Of a stretch of DNA of 15,113 nucleotides, positions 2,850-12,121 are shown piece after piece; positions within the stretch are counted from its first letter, which is position 1, and each line of letters begins with the position of its first letter. The stretch comes from Promethearchaeota archaeon. Lineage in GTDB: Archaea > Asgardarchaeota > Lokiarchaeia > Sigyniarchaeales > SOKP01. The stretch covers positions 1 to 15,113 of the forward strand of contig SDNY01000089.1 in the NCBI GenBank assembly GCA_004524535.1, read 5' to 3'. The translations under genes and the position numbers were made by a program. The notes below the pieces were generated by a model. It was not told where the DNA came from, searched no databases, and was given only the letters and a program-made list of their open reading frames with translations.

Positions 2850-3679
2850 ATGGTACAAATTTCAGGCGACTGGGGATTCAGAAATCGCCTCAATAGGATA
2901 ATCAAGCCTAAATCTGGACGATGTGTGATGTTAGCAATAGATCACGGCTATTTTGGAAACGTGCCCGGTCAATTAAAATGTTTTGAAGAGATGTCACCCC
3001 TATTTAAGTATGCCGATGCCTTGATGTTAACACGGGGAATGTTGAGAAATTGTGTCCCCTCAGAGGTTGAGGCCCCTATAGTATTAAGAGTCTCAGCAGG
3101 AGCAAGTATGTTAAAAGAACTTTCTAATGAGGAAATCAATGTAGCTGTGGATGATGCCATTAGATTAAATGTTTCAGCAATAACATGCTCAATATTTGTT
3201 GGAGGAGAATATGAAAAACAATCTCTCATGAACTTATCGAAACTAGTAAATTGGGGTCAGCAATATGGCATTCCAACGTTAGCCGTGACAGCGGTAGGGC
3301 GTGAAATGGTGAGGGATGCTCGTTATTTAGGTATGGCAAGTAGAATGGCTGCTGAAATGGGAGCAACTTTCGTGAAAACATATTATTGCGAGAATTTTGA
3401 GGAAGTTACAAGTATCTGTCCTGCGCCAATTGTTATTGCTGGCGGTAAAAAAATTCCTGAAAAAGACGCTTTACAAATGGCGAAAAATGCCGTCGATAAA
3501 GGTGCTGTCGGCGTAGACTATAGCTATTTAGCTTAGTTATAGGCGCAAATATGGGAAGAAATATCTTTCAATCTGATAGCCCGATTGGCATGATAAAAGC
3601 TGTACGAAGAATAGTCCATGAGAATGTCTCGGCTGATGAAGCATTCGAAATTTACAAGAATGGTCCAAAAGGATTATAA
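2850..3679 (+). CDS. lsrF: LsrF/DhnA-family class I aldolase/thiolase, split by a 32-nt intron: join(2850..3516,3549..3679), 265 aa
   Basis: Motifs [26 protein letters not shown]. The track ORF stops at TAG 3534-3536, but the missing C-terminus [24 protein letters not shown]...GPKGL* follows at 3551-3679 in another frame. SD-like GAGGT at 2838-2842. Confidence 0.88.
3517..3548 (+). other. Putative archaeal BHB-type mRNA intron (32 nt)
   Basis: 4-bp central helix GCGU(3511-14)/GCGC(3543-46); 3-nt bulges AGA(3515-17) and AAA(3547-49); 9-bp intron stem CUAUAGCUA(3518-26)/UAGUUAUAG(3534-42) with a 7-nt loop. Cleavage after the 2nd base of each bulge gives GTA G|AT ATG = V-D-M. Confidence 0.85.
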
Positions 3680-3702
3680 TTTTTTTTTTCTATTTTTTTT
3701 TA
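3680..3702 (+). terminator. T-rich archaeal-type terminator after the spliced lsrF
   Basis: Long oligo-T runs directly after TAA 3679, consistent with 3679 being the real gene end. Confidence 0.5.
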
Positions 3703-3814
3703 TTATTATTATAATTTTCTTTTAAATATGATTTTCAAAGAATTTAATTTAATTACAAAAATTTCTGCTCTCCTTCTTTATAAATATATATGAAGTTATT
3801 AAATATATATTACA

Positions 3815-4948
3815 ATGGAAAAAAATAAATATTCAGCAACAAAATTAATAGAAGATTTAAGGAGAGAAATTTTTAAAATAATTCCAACTAGTTTTTTCAT
3901 TAATAATCTTAAAGTAAAAATGATTCGAAATGGAATTCTATCTGATAAAAAGTTAAGCCTTATCCTATGTGGTTATGAAGGTCGCCTTAAAAGGATTAAA
4001 AGGAATATTAGAGCTAATCCAGATTTTAAAATAGCTCAAGATGAATTAATGGATTGGAGCAATAGTATTAATGATTACTTCGGTTCTAAGAGTGACAAGA
4101 TAATTAATTTTATTAAGCAATATCGAGAATTAAACGAAAATTTGCCGATATCCAGAAAAAAAGGATTAAAAGTTTTAAATTATCATCCTAAATTAAAATT
4201 AGATTTTTTTGAAATAATTAATACAAAAGAAAAAGCATATTGGCTAGGACTAATATGGGCAGAAATATACCTAGGGAAAAGAGGTGAAATAAGCCTTGAA
4301 TTAAATAATAAAGATGAAATTCTAATAGATAGATATTGTAAAACCTTAGGTTTAAACCCAAAATATAAAAAATACCAAGTAAAAATGAGAAAAAAAAGTC
4401 CAAGAACATATGTTAGAATTAGATTTAAAAGCAGTAAAATTCAAAAGGATCTATACAAATTAGGGTATATAAAAAGCAGTAAAAAGTCTACAATATTTCC
4501 TAAATTAGATATTCGAGAATTAGATTTAGCGTTTCTACTTGGATTTTTCGATGGTGACGGAAAGGAAGGTACAAATACACTTCATATAGGTAGTAGGAAA
4601 ATTCTTGAACACATTAAGGAAAAATTTAATGTTCCTCATGAAATTCTGCCTGATAAGAAAGGATATTATTACTTTAGTCTAGGTGGAAAATTATTTAATG
4701 AAATGATGACAAATTATAGAAATAGCCTAGAAAGAAAAAGAAGATTCTTTAGAGTTCCAATTAAAGAAAAATTAAAAGAACTAATCTCAAGAGAAAAACT
4801 TAGAGAATTAGTATGGAAATTAACCCTCAAGGAAATAGCTGAAAGATATAATGCTTACCCAAGAGCCATTTCTGAATTATGTATTGAGTGGGGGATAAAA
4901 AGACCTCCTACTCATTATTGGCATCAAAATTTAAGTGAGCAAAAATAG
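3815..4948 (+). CDS. Free-standing double-motif LAGLIDADG homing-endonuclease-like protein with C-terminal HTH
   Basis: Motif 1 AYWLGLIWAEI (degenerate), motif 2 AFLLGFFDGDG; very Lys/Arg-rich; HTH-like tail LTLKEIAERYNAYPRAISELCIEWGIKRP. No intein splice residues or host-protein fusion seen. Confidence 0.85.
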   Translation: MEKNKYSATKLIEDLRREIFKIIPTSFFINNLKVKMIRNGILSDKKLSLILCGYEGRLKRIKRNIRANPDFKIAQDELMDWSNSINDYFGSKSDKIINFIKQYRELNENLPISRKKGLKVLNYHPKLKLDFFEIINTKEKAYWLGLIWAEIYLGKRGEISLELNNKDEILIDRYCKTLGLNPKYKKYQVKMRKKSPRTYVRIRFKSSKIQKDLYKLGYIKSSKKSTIFPKLDIRELDLAFLLGFFDGDGKEGTNTLHIGSRKILEHIKEKFNVPHEILPDKKGYYYFSLGGKLFNEMMTNYRNSLERKRRFFRVPIKEKLKELISREKLRELVWKLTLKEIAERYNAYPRAISELCIEWGIKRPPTHYWHQNLSEQK

Positions 4949-4992
4949 AATAATAAGTAAGGTTATTAACTTAATTAATATTTATGATTAGC

Positions 4993-5421
4993 TTACTTTT
5001 CAGATTCATTCCAATTTTTATATACAGATTTATGCTCATATTTTAAATAATGAATGATATCCAATATTCCACCAATAAATGACAATATACCAATTATAAT
5101 CCATATACTATCAGAAGTAAAGTAAAACAAGATTATGTATAAAAAATTGTAGAAAATCCCTATGAACCAAGGATTAAAAGAACCCATATATCTACCATAA
5201 GGTCGTATCCCTATATAAGAATAATAAATAGTTGTTCCATATACAAAGTAGAACATTATAATTACAATTAAGAAATACAGAGAATTTGACATTACGATAT
5301 AGTAGTAACCCCGAATTGTTATTAAAACTAACACTATTAGAAATAGAACACAAATAATATATGAAAATATTGTATTCCTTTCCTTTAAATCTCTTAATCT
5401 GATTGGTTTATTGTTTTTCAT
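4993..5421 (-). CDS. Hypothetical membrane protein (about 4 TM segments)
   Basis: 142-aa ORF with ATG start and four hydrophobic, Tyr/Ile-rich stretches; fills the gap convergent with the LAGLIDADG gene; no family recognised. Confidence 0.6.
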   Translation of the reverse strand: MKNNKPIRLRDLKERNTIFSYIICVLFLIVLVLITIRGYYYIVMSNSLYFLIVIIMFYFVYGTTIYYSYIGIRPYGRYMGSFNPWFIGIFYNFLYIILFYFTSDSIWIIIGILSFIGGILDIIHYLKYEHKSVYKNWNESEK

Positions 5422-5520
5422 TGAAAGTGGATTTTTAATTATGAAAAATTAATTCAAGAAAATTATTATTCTTATTTTTTTAATAAAATTATGTTTTTCA
5501 GAGTAATTATTGATTGGTAT

Positions 5521-5637
5521 ATTTTTCAATCAGATAAACCAATTGGAATGATTAAAGCTGTTAGAGCAATTGTGCATGAAAATGCTTCGGTGGATGAAGC
5601 TTACGAAATATATCAGAGTGGTCCAGTAGGATTGTGA
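5521..5637 (+). pseudogene. Orphan duplicate of the lsrF 3' end (38 codons + stop)
   Basis: Translates to [38 protein letters not shown], 30/38 aa identical to 3563-3679; similarity to lsrF stops at about 5519. Confidence 0.92.
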
Positions 5638-5644
5638 AATAGCC

Positions 5645-5682
5645 TTTATTTTTTCTTTTTTCTTATTATTTTATTTTTATTT
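5645..5682 (+). terminator. T-rich terminator-like tract after the orphan lsrF 3' end
   Basis: Repeated oligo-T runs after TGA 5637. Confidence 0.4.
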
Positions 5683-5744
5683 GGTTAATTTAATAAATCT
5701 TAATTTATTTTTTTCTACAATACACATATTAAGAATATATTACA

Positions 5745-6722
5745 ATGGAAATACCTAAGATAAAGAATCTCGAAATTAAAGAAGTTATAAAAGATAATAT
5801 CTTAATAGCGCATCAGAATAAGGTGCCTAGTGATTTTTCTTGCTGTGATGGATTAATCATTTTACCTAGAAAAGGGCGAAATTCTGAGACTGTTATTCTT
5901 GATTTGAATATTCAACCTAAATATTCAATAGAACTCTATAAGGATATTGGTCCTATTTTAAATTATGTCTGTACTCATGGGCACTTGGATCACATGGCTC
6001 ATGTATATGGATGGGAAGCATTAGAGGCAACTATCCACGCACCTAATCCTGAAGCAAATTATCTACTTGATTTAAAAAATTTTCATAAAGATAATTTCGA
6101 TGCGAGAGTGAGTTTTAGCGATGTTAAAAAATTTGCTGAATTAAATGAATATTTTACCTGCAATAATGTGGAAGCATTTGAACCAGGAGATACATTAAAA
6201 TTTGAAAATTTGATTATAGAAACGATTCCATTTCCGGGACATGGCAATGGGCATGTTGGCCTTTATATTCCTTCCGAAAAAGTATTACATATAAGTTGTA
6301 TGGGATTTGACCAACCTGAACCGGGAATCGATGGATTTGGTCCATGGTATGGTTTTCAAGATTGTTCAATTGAACAATATTTAGAGGATATTGATAAAGC
6401 AGAGAAACTTTTCCTTGAAAAAGCTAAATTTTTAACTTCTAGTCATGGCTACATTGTGAAAAATCCAGATAAAACACCCTTTGAATATATGAGGAGAAAA
6501 TTAAAAGAACGGCAAAACTTAGTCAATATGGCAGCAATAAAGTCAGAATTAAGTTTAAATTTAGAGGAAAGTGTAAATCTCTTATTAGAACAAGACTTAA
6601 TTTTTCAAAAAAAGAAAATGAAATCCTTTCTTAAGAAGATATATACTTTTTGGGAATATTGGATAATTAAAAAGCATCTTCAACATACTTATAAAACCTT
6701 AGAAATAGAAGAACAAGATTAA
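5745..6722 (+). CDS. Metallo-beta-lactamase-fold hydrolase
   Basis: HxHxDH motif (THGHLDHM), PGHGNGH and SSHG; 325 aa. Confidence 0.9.
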   Translation: MEIPKIKNLEIKEVIKDNILIAHQNKVPSDFSCCDGLIILPRKGRNSETVILDLNIQPKYSIELYKDIGPILNYVCTHGHLDHMAHVYGWEALEATIHAPNPEANYLLDLKNFHKDNFDARVSFSDVKKFAELNEYFTCNNVEAFEPGDTLKFENLIIETIPFPGHGNGHVGLYIPSEKVLHISCMGFDQPEPGIDGFGPWYGFQDCSIEQYLEDIDKAEKLFLEKAKFLTSSHGYIVKNPDKTPFEYMRRKLKERQNLVNMAAIKSELSLNLEESVNLLLEQDLIFQKKKMKSFLKKIYTFWEYWIIKKHLQHTYKTLEIEEQD

Positions 6723-6847
6723 TCTTCTTCTGGTTCTAAAATTACTTTCATCGATTCGTTGGCTTCACAGACAACTTTAAATGCCGCTCCAGCCTTACTA
6801 AGCGGAAATCGATGTGATATTAACTTCACTATTTCAAATTTCTTGGA
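6719..6847 (-). pseudogene. Orphan duplicate of the Zn-dehydrogenase 3' end (42 codons + stop)
   Basis: Minus strand reads SKKFEIVKLISHRFPLSKAGAAFKVVCEANESMKVILEPEED*, an ungapped 21/42 aa match to the end of 8444-9493 (SKKLSIVNLISHRYSIEKVQEAFNTVCDADNSLKVIIDFEMG*); preceded in frame by TGA. Confidence 0.9.
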
Positions 6848-8572
6848 TCATTATCTTTCTATAAATCTTTAATTTATGATACTATTGAGATTTATATATA
6901 TTTATTTCTTAAATATAGAAAAAGCTGTTTATTATGGAGAAATTGAATAGATATAATCTTAATAAAATAAAAGAATTAGTTGAGGATTTGAGTATAAGGA
7001 AATCCGGAATAAAAGGTGTAATTTTAAATCCGAAAAATGAAGAAGAATTCAAAAATTTAAAAAATATTTCCGGTCAAATTCCAAGCAAAACTAAGATTAA
7101 AGTAAAATGTGGTGTTCCAGAACATCCGGCGTGGATAACAACAGCAGATCGCTTGCAACAAGGACATTGGTGTAAGGTTTGTGCGTATAATATTTTTACA
7201 TTTGAAAAAGCAAAAAAATTAGTTAAAAAACTTGGTCTCAAAAAATATGGAATTGAAGGACAAATAATTAAACCAGAAAATTCTTTAGAATTCATTAAAT
7301 TAACTGGAACATATCAACCTAGTTATGTACCATTGTTAGTCTCTTGCGGAATTTCAAATCACCAAAATTGGATCACAAATGGGAGAGCTTTATCTAGAGG
7401 TAATTGGTGTAGAGAATGTTATATAGAAAGTATGAAATTAACATTTAATGATATTAAGAATATAGTCAAGGATGCAGGTCGTAATAAAATTGGTAAAGAT
7501 GGTATTTTGCTTGAACCTATTAATCTGCAAGATTTTGAAAAACTAAAGATAGCTCCTAGTAAAATCCCTTTAAAGATTAAATGTGGAGTTCCAGAACATC
7601 CAGAATGGATTACTGATGCTTCCCATTTAATAAGAGGTAATTGGTGCAAATTTTGTGCTCAAAATATTTTTACTTATAAATCTATAAAGAATTTAGTAAA
7701 AGATGTTGGATTAAAAAAGTCTGGTGTAAAAGGACATCTTATTAAACCAAGATAGAATTTAAAAAAATAAATAAAAATATTAAACCTAGTGAAATTCAAT
7801 TATTAGTTAAATGTGGAATTGTGGATCATGGAACTTGGAATACAAATGCGCATCGATTACAACAAGGATATTGGTGTTCAGTTTGTTCTCAAGGTGAAAA
7901 TGAACAGATATGTCGTTGGTATTTTGAACAAATTTTTAATAAATCCTTTCCAAAAACTCAATTAAGTAAGGTAATTAGAATAGTAAATGAAAAAATGTAT
8001 AATGAAACAGAACTAGATATATTAAACAGATTAATTAAATATGGTCATTTTGATGGATATGCTGAATTAAAATTAAATAGAAAATCAATAAAATTAGCTT
8101 TTGAATATAATGGCCCTCAACATTATAGATTTCCCAATCATGTACATAAAACCAAGGAGAAATTCAATTATCAAAGATTTCTTGATCAAATGAAGCAAAA
8201 AGTATGTGATGCAGAAGAAAATAAAATAGTTCTAATAGTATTCCCGTTTTTTATTGACGAAAGGATGGATAATCCAGAAATTATTCAAAATTACATAGTA
8301 AAGGAATTCAATATTAAAACCGGTATCGATTTAGTCGATTTACCAAAATTTAATCATAAAACATACGTTTTTGGTCAATATAAGCTAGATAAATATCTCA
8401 AATGATAAATTTCTAAAAAATATTAATTGAATTTAGATAATTTTCATCCCATTTCAAAATCAATTATTACTTTTAATGAATTATCAGCATCACATACAGT
8501 ATTGAATGCTTCTTGTACTTTCTCAATTGAATAGCGATGGGATATTAAATTAACAATAGATAATTTCTTGGA
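6848..8572. mobile_element. Putative endonuclease cassette 2: replacement dehydrogenase 3' end + Zn-ribbon/Vsr-like nuclease gene
   Basis: Bounded by two diverged copies of the dehydrogenase 3' end (8444-8572 and 6719-6847), both starting with TCCAAGAAATT on the minus strand. The right boundary is uncertain. Confidence 0.62.
6934..8405 (+). pseudogene. Zn-ribbon-repeat protein with C-terminal Vsr/DUF559-like PD-(D/E)XK endonuclease domain, frameshifted near 7753
   Basis: Track ORFs 6934-7755 and 7821-8405 are one gene: four CGxxxHxxW...GxWCxxC repeats, then E(QICR)...FDGY...LAFEYNGPQHY...DQMKQKVC...LIVFPF. The second frame is open from 7755 (EFKKINKNIKPSEIQLLVKCG). Confidence 0.8.
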
Positions 8573-9493
8573 ACTAATGATACTATAAGCGTCATCTAAA
8601 TCTTGAGGGGCCGCACCATATGAAGTCATAATTGTGATCTCATTTCTCCAATAGTCGTTTATAGGTACTTCAAGGTTAATTCCGGGTTTGGGAACTGCAA
8701 AAAAGATGATTGTACTACCAGGACCAGCACAATCTAAAGCTTGCCTTGCTGCCGATAAAGCACCAGTGCACACAATTACAACATCAGGGGATCTTCCCTC
8801 GTTATTTTTTTTTACTTCTGAGATACTTTCATCATTTGCGTGAATTGCCTCATCAGCACCAAACTGTTTTGCTTTTTCTAATCGATAGTCGCTTATATCT
8901 GTAGTGATAACTTTTTCTACACCTTTAGCTTTTGCCAGCATAAGATGCAATAATCCCGAGACTCCACTACCTAGTATCAAGAGGGTTTGCCCTTTTTTGA
9001 TATTGGCTAATCTTTGAGCACGACATACACACCCCAAAGGTTCAATAAACACACCCTCTTCATATGAAACATCATCATCAAGAATATATACTCCTTTTTT
9101 TTCTATATTAACTGTTGGAACTCTAAGATATTCAGCAAAGCCACCAGGATCGAAATTTGTATTATGAAGCAAATTGCAAGCGGTATGATGCCCTAGTTCA
9201 CAGTAATGACAATCAAAACAAGGAACATGATGTGATACAAAGACTCGGTCTCCAACTTTAAAATCTTTTACTCCTTCCCCGATCTCAACAATATCACCAG
9301 CAATTTCATGCCCCAAAATAAGATTATCAACGCCGAGTTTTTTCATTTTTGCTAATCGATAATACTCCAAAATATCGGATCCACAGATTCCAGATTTCTT
9401 CACTTTTACTAAGAGTTCTCCAGGACCAATTTTAGGTCTGGGTATCTCATCAAGTCTAATATCGTTGTTATTATAATATCTTGCGATTTTCAT
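8444..9493 (-). CDS. Zn-dependent medium-chain alcohol/polyol dehydrogenase (L-iditol/threonine dehydrogenase-like)
   Basis: GICGSD, LGHEIAG, structural Zn site CFDCHYC-x7-C, EPLGC and Rossmann GSGVSG. Confidence 0.93.
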   Translation of the reverse strand: MKIARYYNNNDIRLDEIPRPKIGPGELLVKVKKSGICGSDILEYYRLAKMKKLGVDNLILGHEIAGDIVEIGEGVKDFKVGDRVFVSHHVPCFDCHYCELGHHTACNLLHNTNFDPGGFAEYLRVPTVNIEKKGVYILDDDVSYEEGVFIEPLGCVCRAQRLANIKKGQTLLILGSGVSGLLHLMLAKAKGVEKVITTDISDYRLEKAKQFGADEAIHANDESISEVKKNNEGRSPDVVIVCTGALSAARQALDCAGPGSTIIFFAVPKPGINLEVPINDYWRNEITIMTSYGAAPQDLDDAYSIISSKKLSIVNLISHRYSIEKVQEAFNTVCDADNSLKVIIDFEMG

Positions 9494-10389: not shown

Positions 10390-10742
10390 TTTTTTTTGTG
10401 CCTTGGTAATTATACCTAATCTTTTTTTTTATCATTCAATTAGGTGTCCTATTTTTTTCTTTTTTCATTATAAATATGTGATCAGTAATTAAAAAAAAAT
10501 AACATTAAGTCTTAAATTCGAAACTATAGGAAAGCCAATTATTAAATTCTCATTCAGTATTCATTTAAAAATCTTGATTTCTATGGTTTTATTATGAAAA
10601 AGCTAAAAGAATTTTTATGTAAAATTATTATTAAAAATGAAGAGTTTTGAGACCAGAAGACATATATAAAGAAGTGAAAAATGAATCCATAAGTAAAGAG
10701 AGTGGTTGTAACAAATTAAATGAGATAATTTTTAGAAGCAAA

Positions 10743-10869
10743 GAATATATTAGATAATTACTTCGAATTGATTAAAAGAAGAGAGAGAATACCCATGGAT
10801 ATCAACGAATATATTAGATAATTACTTCGAATTGATTAAAAGAAGAGAGAGAATACCCATGGATATCAA
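10743..10869 (+). repeat. Perfect 63-nt tandem direct repeat (10743-10805 and 10807-10869)
   Basis: gaatatattagataattacttcgaattgattaaaagaagagagagaatacccatggatatcaa occurs twice, separated by one C. Confidence 0.95.
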
Positions 10870-11383
10870 AGCATTTTGGAAAATTATTGAAAGCACACGG
10901 AAAGAAAGCGATTATAATACAAAACGACAAAAGGAATTAATAATTGACAAATTAATCACATATTCTATTGAAGATATTGTTGTCTTTAAAGAAATTTTTA
11001 ATTTCTTTACATCTAAATTAGAAGATAATGATGGTTTGGCACATTTACTTGTAGAGAACTTCGATATGTTTTTATCAGATGATGGATGGTATTATTTCTG
11101 CTTAGGAACAGTCGCACTAGGAAAAGATTTGTATACAATGGCTTTATTTGATTCTCCAAAATTTATCAAACTGTTGGAAAAAGGAGATTATGGACATCCA
11201 CGAAGTATTGAGCAAGAATTATATGTAATCTATCCTAAAGTTATGGAAAGATTAACGGGGTCATACAAGATAGAAGATATTTATGATTTGGAGAAGAATA
11301 ATAAAAATATCAGAAAAGTAAAGAATGAGATTAGGAGTGAATTAGATTCTTGGTATCTTGAAGAGTTAAAAAAATATATTTAA
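10859..11383 (+). CDS. DUF4240-like hypothetical protein
   Basis: MDIKAFWKIIE N-terminus and SDDGWYYFCLGTVALGK resemble DUF4240 as I recall it; ATG 10859 preferred over TTG 10832. Confidence 0.7.
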   Translation: MDIKAFWKIIESTRKESDYNTKRQKELIIDKLITYSIEDIVVFKEIFNFFTSKLEDNDGLAHLLVENFDMFLSDDGWYYFCLGTVALGKDLYTMALFDSPKFIKLLEKGDYGHPRSIEQELYVIYPKVMERLTGSYKIEDIYDLEKNNKNIRKVKNEIRSELDSWYLEELKKYI

Positions 11384-11413
11384 AAAAGGAATATATATAT
11401 TGAAAAAAAAGAA

Positions 11414-11908
11414 TTGAAAGAAAAAATAATTATGAGATTCAGTACAAGTATAATGGGCGGCGATGATGAGTGCGATCTTGAAGGCAAAATAATTGATGTC
11501 TGTGAAGTAGACCATCGTAAATTTATGATAAATCCTAACATATTTACCAAAGAAATCTTCGAGAAGAATTTTGACAGAATAATAGAAAAGATTGATGAAT
11601 ACGCTAATTTGAGAAATAAATTCCCCATCGCTTATAAAGTACTTGGAAGATTTGTCCTACTGACAGGAATTGACATTTCTGAAGAAATAAGAGATTTAAT
11701 TATTAAAGCAACAAATTGGTCTTATGAAAAGGATATTTGGATTGGGAAAGAAAATATAGCGGAGAGCAAACGTAATCTTAAAGAATTGAGAGATAAAATC
11801 ATCAGATATAAACCAGGAATACCCGATCCTCTAAAGGCGGATTTAAGAAGCCCTTGTTCATTAAGGGAGTATGAATCATTGTTTAATTCTCTTTCGAGAA
11901 GAAATTAA
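11414..11908 (+). CDS. Hypothetical protein
   Basis: 164-aa ORF (alternative ATG at 11432) with plausible helical, charged composition; no family recognised with confidence. Confidence 0.65.
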   Translation: MKEKIIMRFSTSIMGGDDECDLEGKIIDVCEVDHRKFMINPNIFTKEIFEKNFDRIIEKIDEYANLRNKFPIAYKVLGRFVLLTGIDISEEIRDLIIKATNWSYEKDIWIGKENIAESKRNLKELRDKIIRYKPGIPDPLKADLRSPCSLREYESLFNSLSRRN

Positions 11909-12121
11909 TCTCTTACGAATTAAGTTTGATTTTTTTTAAAAACCTTGTAAGCTTGCCTTCTATGAAGAGATAGATATATGTTTGAATCCGATATATTTTT
12001 ATTTTTTGTTTTATTTTCCAATTTAATATTTTATTTACAAAAAACTTTAACAATAACAGGTTTAAATTTTGTTTAAGGTAGACCTAATATTGTTTAATAA
12101 TAAAAAAATTTAACTAAAAAA

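Follow-up and report, generated by a model that had tools for sequence, protein, structure and literature searches.

A probable free-standing homing-endonuclease cassette with a replacement gene end in a dehydrogenase gene of a Loki-type Asgard archaeon

Free-standing phage homing endonucleases such as the Seg and Mob enzymes of T4 are associated with intronless homing and marker exclusion; to our knowledge, their genes are intergenic, and no gene end is duplicated by them. For fungal mitochondria, PMC3630166 describes mORF "gene hybrids" in atp6 of Allomyces macrogynus, in atp6, atp9, cox2 and nad3 of Glomus sp., in atp9 of Rhizopus oryzae and in cox2 of Mortierella verticillata. According to a 2025 study, phage group I and II introns hold a "large unrecognized outgroup" of homing endonuclease genes (HEGs), in which three to five CapR/DUF4379/DUF723-like domains are followed by an EDxHD/Vsr-like domain (PMC12350094). 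I-Bth0305I (PDB 3r3p) is an EDxHD/Vsr-like homing endonuclease, and Hef-type Vsr-like enzymes are treated as accepted free-standing members of the family in PMC3239194; therefore, the absence of an intron or intein does not exclude family membership. In the main texts searched, the combination of a stranded native gene end and an imported one was found for fungal mitochondria only so far; no prokaryotic report of this design and none on Asgard homing endonucleases was encountered.

The window, i.e. the whole stretch of DNA analysed here, comprises 15,113 nt and derives from a Loki-type Asgard archaeon with a genome of 3.66 Mb in 198 contigs and an estimated contamination of 4.4%. It contains an intact dehydrogenase gene (8444–9493, − strand) encoding 349 aa. 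The GroES-like domain ADH_N (PF08240, 1.7e-26) and the Rossmann domain ADH_zinc_N (PF00107, 1.8e-24) are both present and pass the Pfam cut-offs, identifying the product as a zinc-type medium-chain dehydrogenase/reductase. The same length of 349 aa was found in 14 of the 27 relatives with a complete end, the remaining ones having 346–352 aa. The native convergent neighbour of this gene encodes an MBL-fold hydrolase of 325 aa (5745–6722, + strand; Pfam Lactamase_B, 2.4e-08): the two genes are neighbours in 17 of the 27 loci of relatives, 15 of these 17 having −19 to +76 nt between them, and the MBL gene anchors the original junction. In the insert-free sister genome, G008, the dehydrogenase is 86% identical at the amino acid level and the MBL gene 94%; the core of the dehydrogenase gene (nt 106–810) is 93% identical.

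Directly beside the MBL gene, the 3' end of the dehydrogenase is found a second time (6719–6847, − strand; 42 codons and the stop), lacking a start codon and with stop codons ahead of it. Translation of 6719–6880 (−) gave, behind two stops, SKKFEIVKLISHRFPLSKAGAAFKVVCEANESMKVILEPEED followed by the terminal stop codon. Stub and present end are equal in length and share 21 of 42 aa (counted by eye) and 79 of 129 nt, and the stop codon of the stub (6719–6721, −) overlaps that of the MBL gene (6720–6722, +) in a TTAA motif at 6719–6722. Both the alternative end and the overlapping stops had been noticed in an earlier sequence-only reading, which took the fragment for the original gene end and predicted that an insert-free relative would end in ...KVILEPEED, with its stop codon overlapping the MBL stop. 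Precisely this was seen in G008, the nearest insert-free relative: its dehydrogenase ends in ...KVILEPEED, the stops overlap with the same TTAA geometry (gap −4), and its end matches the stub in 37 of 42 aa and 119 of 129 nt. Insert-free relatives ending in ...IIDFEMG were not found, and none of 28 relatives' loci contained a second end fragment. By these comparisons, the stub is the original end of the dehydrogenase gene, displaced by 1.7 kb, untranslatable and still abutting the MBL-fold gene.

The C-terminus of the dehydrogenase is now SKKLSIVNLISHRYSIEKVQEAFNTVCDADNSLKVIIDFEMG, i.e. ...KVIIDFEMG before the stop codon. Among the 27 complete relatives, an ending with ...VIIDF... occurs in three, all of which belong to another genus, g4. 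The present end matches G008 in 80 of 129 nt but the dehydrogenase genes of g4 in 93–94 of 129. Over nt 907–1050 of the gene, the imported end is 60–62% identical to three same-genus genes (56–66% across the six compared) and 69–70% to g4, whereas the ends of the genus-mates are 69–83% identical to one another, the near-identical pair G002/G005 being left out. The present end is foreign, as the stub resembles the sister species far more closely. Its duplicated part covers 8444–8572 (−), again 42 codons plus stop. The sequence-only reading had given the imported end this same extent, which holds for the duplicated part; the foreign tract is, however, ~12 nt longer and reaches to about 8584, positions 8573–8584 encoding SIIS, four more foreign codons in place of the EWIK or KWIK of native genes. 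The replacement 3' end is accordingly assigned to 8444–8584 (−). The comparison with G008 had suggested ~nt 850–873 as the start of the foreign tract; as the window is still matched by G002 and G005 up to nt 908, the start was placed at ~nt 909. The dehydrogenase is thus a hybrid in which a foreign end follows a native body, its full length being kept by the replacement. A donor search at the DNA level in 134 same-family genomes revealed no near-identical cassette or end; the best matches were 77% over 187 nt for the end (G011) and 68% for the nuclease gene.

The ~1.74-kb cassette is lodged in the dehydrogenase gene at its 3' end, from about 6849 to 8584 of the window. Its left end is an AT-rich spacer of 86 nt upstream of the start codon of a nuclease gene (6848–6933, +) and has no homologue in the insert-free allele; a spacer of 38 nt within the cassette (8406–8443) separates the stop codon of the nuclease gene from that of the dehydrogenase gene, the two genes being convergent. 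Alignment with G008 gave 94.5% DNA identity across 5646–6848, stopped at 6848 and resumed from 8466, and 108 nt of G008, the counterpart of the duplicated end, aligned twice to the window. Both allelic states were recovered from an independent metagenome (run X2). One contig with a depth of 10.4 represents the empty site and joins 6848 to 8585, with 11 other letters in between; others bridge both cassette junctions (6787–6899 with 0 differences, 7788–8666 with 1 difference). The insertion itself is shown by these data. Together with the nearness of the present end to g4 and its distance from G008, the empty-site and junction contigs also bear out the earlier proposal that this end came with the nuclease gene. 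In a third study (run X3), a contig covering 8071–8669 with 10 differences in 599 nt leads through other sequence to 6848; it is a variant cassette at the same site, of which about 560 letters are unaligned. A further X2 contig, which covers 7120–7794, differs from the window solely by 7 additional letters after position 7752. Empty and occupied sites coexist, as do intact and broken nuclease genes. The sequence TCCAAGAAATT, identical in both copies and different in G008, had been considered a mark of co-conversion; this reading was dropped because none of the differences listed for the X2 empty-site contig falls there.

Terminal inverted repeats pairing the two ends (6849 and 8572–8584) were not found, and the flanking repeat is a diverged gene segment of 129 nt, not a short exact target-site duplication; the element thus has neither of these two hallmarks of a DNA transposon or insertion sequence. 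No Rfam family was detected in the window at E ≤ 1, hence no intron RNA, and no tRNA was found. A scan for bacterial-type signals, which is unsuited to archaea, returned 8 promoter-like sites (14.6 expected) and 0 terminators. As a separate observation, a LAGLIDADG cassette lies beyond the MBL gene, 2 kb away; it likewise combines a native stub with an imported end, and this imported end contains a candidate bulge-helix-bulge (BHB) mini-intron of 32 nt at the presumptive target, in the region 3500–3560 of the window.

The nuclease gene is read in two frames. The first piece (6934–7755, +) encodes three complete modules of ~80 aa and the start of a fourth before a premature stop; the second piece (7746–8405, +) adds the fourth zinc finger, followed by a nuclease domain of the PD-(D/E)xK type that is Vsr/EDxHD-like. 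The split is due to a 7-nt deletion at 7752–7753 (+), since the 7 extra letters of the X2 contig rejoin both pieces in one frame. By this comparison, the nuclease gene would have been inactivated recently, as usually happens when such elements decay. The intact product would have ~490 aa, comprising four treble-clef zinc-finger modules and the C-terminal nuclease domain. Each module consists of a helical part and a treble-clef zinc finger, in which the residues C53, C74 and C77 are invariant. The first piece matched the PHROGs families phrog_681 ("endonuclease", 3.5e-12) and phrog_559 ("HNH endonuclease", 1.8e-10), while neither piece nor an intact homologue matched a family significantly in Pfam or NCBIfam. 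Of 30 aligned modules of the family, however, 21 matched PF14311, and 6 of 30 homologous modules matched CapR; module 2 of the window, reported individually, fell short of E 0.01 for the module families. When the model of the zinc-finger module (pLDDT 93) was compared with 48,161 chains, none scored above Z 3.2. These data place an array of small modular DNA-binding domains at the N-terminus.

The model of the nuclease domain (pLDDT 88) was aligned by VIA-align with Vsr (1cw0; Z 10.1, rmsd 3.0, 115 residues aligned), with the homing endonuclease I-Bth0305I (3r3p; Z 9.8, rmsd 3.1, 98 of 98 aligned), with a RAP domain (Z 10.5) and with 3hrl (Z 8.1). Foldseek gave no match to the PDB at E ≤ 0.001, and a profile of the domain found no sequence-level match among PDB chains (best E 0.72). 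Across 10 homologues, E, HxDG, ExNGxQH, D and K are invariant; E9, D59, N78, H82 and D103 among them follow the same order as E, D196, N208, H213 and D222 of I-Bth0305I, a correspondence of order. By its model and the structural alignments, the C-terminal domain has a Vsr-type PD-(D/E)xK fold. A search of genome contigs with the nuclease piece yielded 100 pattern matches, of which 0 were confirmed, and a protein homologue search with the nuclease returned 5 proteins only. Relatives of the nuclease domain, on the other hand, amount to >11,000 protein clusters of mixed architectures at E ≤ 0.001, and related domains also occur within giant proteins of 1495 and 1542 aa in the same genome.

Homologues of the nuclease (E ≤ 1e-8) were found in 16 of 35 same-family genomes. 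The closest one is 53% identical at the amino acid level and located beside another gene, and four of the 18 best relatives carry in-frame stops. At two further gene targets, a RibD_C-like and a CoxE-like gene, homologous cassettes combine a native stub with an imported piece, there at the starts of the genes. The stub is the native copy at both sites: it matches the cassette-free sister G071 in 62 of 63 nt, as opposed to 49 of 63 for the replacement, and G004 in 64 of 74 as opposed to 52 of 74. At the site compared with G071, the imported start is alike in 59–60 of 63 nt among nuclease-bearing genomes. In one homologous cassette in another gene, the replacement differs from the stub in 14 places, 13 of these changes being synonymous (codons read by eye). 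The layout of stub plus replacement thus recurs with this nuclease family at three different genes and seven loci, with the same polarity of native stub and imported end. The same insertion site is occupied in a RibD_C-like gene in two genera (G001, G094) and in a CoxE-like gene in four species. Between hosts, the nucleases are 82–87% identical at the CoxE site (flanking genes 77–80%) and 71% at the RibD_C site (flanks 67–68%); since the cassettes are just modestly more alike than their flanks, recent transfer between those hosts is not demonstrated. Duplication of a gene end is not universal in the nuclease family: tblastx (E ≤ 1e-3) detected none at four wider loci (L096–L099). A blastn test of the flanks of 27 loci gave 5 clear positives, 1 tandem duplication (L075), 1 marginal match of 25 nt (L057) and 20 negatives; this test has a low sensitivity, and neither the window nor L080 was detected by it.

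Could the two ends have arisen in place, by a local tandem duplication of the gene end, subsequent divergence and a chance landing of the nuclease gene between the copies? Their equal length, direct orientation and distance of 1.7 kb would fit. The copy near the orthologues, however, is the non-functional one (119/129 nt to G008), while the translated copy stands apart (80/129); decay in place would predict the opposite. Moreover, the translated copy is 56–66% identical to the genus-mates and closest to another genus, and the same polarity was found at two other genes with homologous nucleases. We regard this origin as very improbable. Hardly credible is a derivation of the fragment from a deleted second full-length dehydrogenase paralogue. 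Searching the whole genome with the dehydrogenase revealed, as the only extra pieces, the fragment (E = 4.1e-6) and, on a different contig, a single distant paralogue with 33% identity, which shows that a paralogue exists; but the fragment occupies the end position of the single-copy orthologue, stop to stop with the MBL gene in TTAA as in G008, none of the 28 relatives' loci has two copies or a second fragment, and in the empty-site contig the gene body continues straight into the fragment. A separate full-length paralogue as its source, which the sequence-only reading had named as the competing possibility, was found neither in the genome nor in these loci. Just as implausible is an assembly chimera in which alleles of two strains were stitched together. 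A metagenome-assembled genome of 198 contigs with 4.4% estimated contamination could contain such errors, and the matches in run X1, the probable source, were pieces of 22–32 nt only. Against it, both junctions are bridged in the independent run X2 (0 and 1 differences) and the junction at 6848 also in X3, and the copies, with 61% identity, are too unlike to mislead an assembler.

More weight, although we still consider it unlikely, is due to a one-off illegitimate insertion that the nuclease did not drive, the enzyme having another role, for example in defence or repair, and no homing taking place. Cleavage by the nuclease is argued by analogy, related domains are found in the proteins of 1495 and 1542 aa and in >11,000 clusters of mixed architectures, and the 134 same-family genomes contained no near-identical donor, all of which would suit such an event. 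It does not account well for the same layout with the same enzyme family at three genes and seven loci, for the occupancy of the same site across species and genera, or for the respelled, protein-preserving replacement at one of the three genes; in addition, the predicted fold matches that of a proven homing endonuclease, and the domain order matches that of intron-borne HEGs as given in PMC12350094.

Hence, we favour a free-standing homing-endonuclease cassette that carries the foreign last ~46 codons of the dehydrogenase gene with their own stop codon, an interpretation that we consider quite likely. Cleavage, the cut site and spread by repair are inferred by analogy. The nuclease would cut cassette-free alleles near codons 304–309, and the break would be repaired from a cassette-bearing copy with the gene body and the stub as homology arms; with these two arms, the nuclease gene and the substitute end would be copied in together. 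Splitting of the site and respelling of its right half are proposed to make occupied alleles immune, so that divergence of the replacement end may remove the cleavage site; the 13 synonymous differences out of 14 in the homologous cassette lend this indirect support. Homing endonucleases could in this way colonise chromosomal coding sequences of archaea by means of a substitute gene end, without intron or intein, which would open a route for gene parts, not whole genes, between lineages. It would produce hybrid enzymes and leave behind isolated gene stubs, which annotation pipelines overlook or label as pseudogenes. For the very large uncharacterised Vsr-like branch, codons about 304–309 offer a target-site hypothesis, and its members are possible long-site DNA cutters. 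Only tentatively do we extend this to Loki-type Asgard chromosomes in general, which might host a class of splicing-free "insert-and-rescue" homing cassettes. In these, unrelated nucleases (zinc-finger/Vsr-like or LAGLIDADG) would be combined with respelled spare gene ends or starts, and the stranded native piece would serve as a homology arm, driving piecemeal horizontal replacement of termini between genera; the neighbouring imported end with its BHB mini-intron would be included. If true, "collaborative homing" would have a counterpart in archaea, and Asgard archaea would have a protein-coding BHB intron.

Among the known systems, free-standing phage homing endonucleases resemble the element in having an intronless nuclease gene beside its target, with flanking sequence that, by analogy, would be co-converted on spread; unlike them, it lies inside a coding sequence and therefore needs a spare end. 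With the EDxHD/Vsr-like HEGs (PMC3239194, PMC12350094), it shares a C-terminal nuclease domain of ~100–150 aa with a predicted Vsr fold (Z 9.8–10.1) and the conserved residues E...D...N...H...D, compared by order. The small DNA-binding modules at the N-terminus, four in this case, with PF14311 and CapR matches in homologous modules, resemble the CapR/DUF4379-array outgroup. Unlike the intron-borne members described there, the element is free-standing in a cellular chromosome, without intron or intein, and the integrity of the host gene is ensured by a replacement end, not by splicing. The closest resemblance in design is to the fungal mORFs as presented in PMC3630166: an endonuclease ORF near the 3' end of a gene, a foreign in-frame C-terminal segment and the native C-terminus left downstream as a duplicate. 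The sequence features of a mORF-type insertion, i.e. an inserted ORF, a new in-frame terminus with the native copy beyond it and a native copy nearer to the sister species, were all found here; native and inserted copies are 91–98% and 64–81% identical to the sister species in Glomus, and 92% and 62% in the present case. In contrast to the mORFs, which are LAGLIDADG or GIY-YIG enzymes in frame or co-transcribed with the host gene, the nuclease is Vsr/EDxHD-like with zinc fingers; its gene is antisense and convergent to the host gene, which ends in a stop codon of its own before it. The insertion affects a metabolic gene on an archaeal chromosome, and the same enzyme family also replaces gene starts.

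The window, contig C16 of the host genome (3.66 Mb in 198 contigs), carries an MBL-fold hydrolase gene (5745-6722, plus strand), a nuclease gene in two pieces (6934-7755 and 7746-8405, plus strand) and a zinc-type dehydrogenase gene of 349 aa (8444-9493, minus strand). A 42-codon fragment on the minus strand (6719-6847) had been described in the sequence-only reading as an alternative C-terminus of the dehydrogenase, and this description stood: the fragment is identical to the last 42 codons of the dehydrogenase gene at 21 of 42 amino acids and 79 of 129 nucleotides and was, apart from one paralogue of 33% identity on another contig, the sole extra dehydrogenase-like piece (E 4.1e-6) when the whole host genome was searched with the dehydrogenase. 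Its stop codon shares TTAA with the MBL stop in the window sequence, as had been noted.

Orthologous dehydrogenase loci were gathered from 29 relatives, 27 of which had a complete gene end. The MBL gene was present in the same locus in 17 of these 27 and was convergent with the dehydrogenase gene, -19 to +76 nt apart, in 15 of the 17; in the other two, 504 and 1139 nt lay between the genes, the longer gap containing an epimerase-like gene. Abutting dehydrogenase and MBL genes thus represent the ancestral state. The nearest relative, G008, is of the same genus (86% amino acid identity for the dehydrogenase, 94% for the MBL protein) and lacks the insert. An insert-free relative had been predicted to end in ...KVILEPEED overlapping the MBL stop, and G008 does so, with both stops sharing TTAA (gap -4). 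Its gene end matched the fragment at 37/42 amino acids and 119/129 nucleotides, compared to 22/42 and 80/129 for the present end of the window gene, which bears out the earlier claim that the fragment is the original gene end. The DNA alignment of window and G008 (94.5%) ran up to 6848 and picked up again at 8466, and the 108 nt of G008 that match the duplicated end aligned twice to the window. A second dehydrogenase-end fragment was not found in the 28 loci of other relatives that were checked.

The present end has a different affiliation from the rest of the gene. The core (nt 106-810) was 93% identical to G008, 84-85% to G002 and G005 and 71-72% to genus g4, but the last part (nt 907-1050) was only 60% identical to G008 and 61-62% to G002 and G005, as compared to 69-70% to g4. 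In this last part, the window gene was 56-66% identical to the six genes of its own genus that were compared, and these were 69-83% identical to each other, the near-identical pair G002/G005 (99%) apart. Three of the 27 relatives with a complete end share the ending ...VIIDF..., and all three belong to genus g4; G065, a fourth genome of g4, matched the present-end query with 74% over 183 nt, and the best DNA match was G011 with 77% over 187 nt. The proximity to g4 and the modest best match point to an unsampled lineage closer to g4 as the donor. The foreign tract begins about four codons ahead of the duplicated part, with SIIS instead of the native EWIK or KWIK. The first 105 nt of the gene (9389-9493) were 71% identical to G008, compared to 93% in the core. 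Directly upstream of its dehydrogenase gene, G008 carries a 2.36-kb stretch, missing from the window, that encodes two paralogous membrane proteins of 378 and 361 aa. The dehydrogenase gene is mosaic at both ends. Further along the window, the region 10451-11939, with a DUF4240 gene at 10832-11383 and an ORF of 164 aa at 11414-11908, is replaced in G008 by ~550 nt, and a near-perfect 64-nt tandem repeat (98.5%) is found at 10739-10869.

The locus was also compared with assemblies from three further sequencing runs, X2 (another study), X3 (a third study) and X4, all as contigs, not reads. Contigs of X2 bridge both junctions, at 6787-6899 without a difference and at 7788-8666 with one, and an assembly chimera was thereby ruled out. 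X2 also contains an empty-site contig, in which 11 letters of different sequence link 6848 to 8585 and, on the dehydrogenase strand, correspond to the native EWIK codons. Its depth was 10.4 versus 5.4-6 for the occupied contigs and, since it differs at 13 positions in 168 nt of gene body, it belongs to a related population. A contig of X3 matched 8071-8669 with 10 differences in 599 and reached 6848 after a 1222-nt skip; ~560 letters of its own are unaccounted for, and its loose end resembles another version of the nuclease motif H-x-D-G-Y. It represents a variant cassette at the same insertion site. The host genes flanking the cassette diverge more in X3 (59 differences in 934 nt and 26 in 551). 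X4 contained two pieces of the nuclease with zero differences from the window.

An X2 contig over 7120-7794 differed from the window solely by 7 letters inserted behind 7752. As judged from the reading frames, these letters place both nuclease pieces in one frame, and in the translation the linker of the fourth module then conforms to those of modules 1-3. With the 7-nt gap bridged, both pieces together encode a single protein of ~490 aa, in agreement with the 450-509 aa of intact homologues. The first three quarters of the protein are made up of four ~80-aa modules, each with a terminal C..H...C..C zinc finger, of which three cysteines are invariant across 30 aligned modules of the family. 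Pfam PF14311 (treble-clef zinc finger) was matched by 21 of the 30 modules and CapR by six; module 2 of the window, the sole window module reported individually, had no Pfam match at E 0.01. Phage endonuclease families of PHROGs matched the module region with 3.5e-12 and 1.8e-10. The C-terminal 175 aa were modelled with a pLDDT of 88, and the model has the fold of a Vsr-type nuclease domain: it matched the RAP domain of FASTKD4 (Z 10.5), Vsr (Z 10.1), I-Bth0305I, a homing endonuclease (Z 9.8, with the whole 98-residue chain aligned), and NGO0050 (Z 8.1). Invariant residues are E9, H57-x-D59-G, E76-x-N78-G-x-Q-H82, D103 and K106; in the EDxHD family the order is E, D196, N208, H213 and D222 (PMC3239194), the likeness being one of order and not a residue-by-residue mapping. 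A profile of the domain matched 11,517 protein clusters at E<=0.001, with PF14311 in many of those checked. Related domains also lie in the host genome within open frames of 1542 aa (C153:3889-4476) and 1495 aa (C155:3913-4218), so that the fold serves in giant proteins as well.

Of 35 genomes belonging to the same family, 16 had nuclease homologues (E<=1e-8), as had 1 of 24 genomes from elsewhere; 4 of the 18 best relatives have in-frame stops. Two further insertion sites show the design of the window, at gene starts instead of ends. One, in four species of genus g11, lies between a MoxR-like and a CoxE/VWA-like gene. In G018, the stub beside the MoxR-like gene shared 62/63 nt with G071, a sister that lacks the cassette. 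The start attached to the CoxE-like gene shared 49/63 nt with G071 but 59-60/63 with the other three genomes that carry the nuclease. Stub and replacement differ at 14 positions, and as read from the codons 13 of these changes are synonymous. In G083 and G084 the CoxE-like gene start has the cassette-type spelling (57 and 59/63 nt) with no nuclease gene in the locus, consistent with either an invaded locus that later lost its nuclease or a donor lineage. The other site, in G001 (genus g1) and G094 (genus g11), lies between an amidohydrolase and a RibD_C-like gene, with a stub of ~22 codons in both; compared to its sister G004, the stub of G001 was 64/74 and the attached start 52/74 identical. 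A duplicated flank was not found at other family loci by a flank comparison which also missed the window itself, and therefore the spare end would accompany insertion inside coding sequence. Between hosts, the cassettes are only slightly more alike than their flanks.

The opposite flank of the MBL gene bears a first cassette (3542-5682), which contains a LAGLIDADG-like gene (3815-4948; phrog_4645, 1.6e-28), unrelated to the zinc-finger nuclease, and an ORF on the minus strand (4993-5421), and follows the same logic of stub and replacement. The native 3' end of a DeoC/FbaB-like aldolase gene is stranded at ~5524-5637, just upstream of the MBL start (110/114 nt to G008), and the end attached to the aldolase gene (3551-3679) was 83/114 identical to G008 and 92-94/114 to G005 and G002. 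The MBL gene thus lies between two gene-end-replacing cassettes. The aldolase body is split from its C-terminal 42 codons (from ATG 3551) by a frame-shifting stretch of 32 nt (~3517-3548), unique in the host genome, and once it is removed the gene reads GVD-MGRN, like its uninterrupted orthologues. In the predicted RNA structure, a 4-bp helix (3511-3514/3543-3546) is flanked by 3-nt bulges (3515-3517 and 3547-3549) around a 9-bp hairpin (3518-3526/3534-3542), the layout of a bulge-helix-bulge (BHB). The host, G002 and G005 have the insert, one pair being changed from G-U to A-U. It is absent from G008 and G007 as judged by sequence, from G003 and G004 as judged by their open frames (261-265 aa), and from nine loci of other genera. 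It is a candidate BHB intron in a protein-coding Asgard gene, possibly shielding the LAGLIDADG target; a split gene is the alternative candidate.

For the dehydrogenase cassette, the best-supported model is the cut-and-repair model proposed for mobile endonuclease ORFs (mORFs) of fungal mitochondria (PMC3630166), its cleavage steps being proposed by analogy. The enzyme would cut an allele that lacks the cassette, at the point of insertion, and the break would be repaired from a cassette-bearing copy, with the gene body as one arm and the stub as the other; occupied alleles would be immune because their site is split and respelled. Such a model would explain the host-like stub, the imported end travelling with the nuclease and the decay of the nuclease after fixation, here by a 7-nt deletion. 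The architecture of the enzyme also has a precedent: a 2025 paper describes intron-borne homing endonuclease genes of phages in which three to five CapR/DUF4379/DUF723-like domains precede an EDxHD/Vsr-like one, the domain order of the window nuclease, and terms them a large unrecognised outgroup of EDxHD/Vsr homing endonuclease genes (PMC12350094). A prokaryotic description of the gene-end-replacing design was not found in the literature searched. In sum, this design is already known from fungal mitochondria and the enzyme architecture from phage introns; what is new is that the two occur together on an archaeal chromosome, with the nuclease gene antisense to its host gene, with examples from gene starts as well as gene ends and with a set of coexisting alleles.
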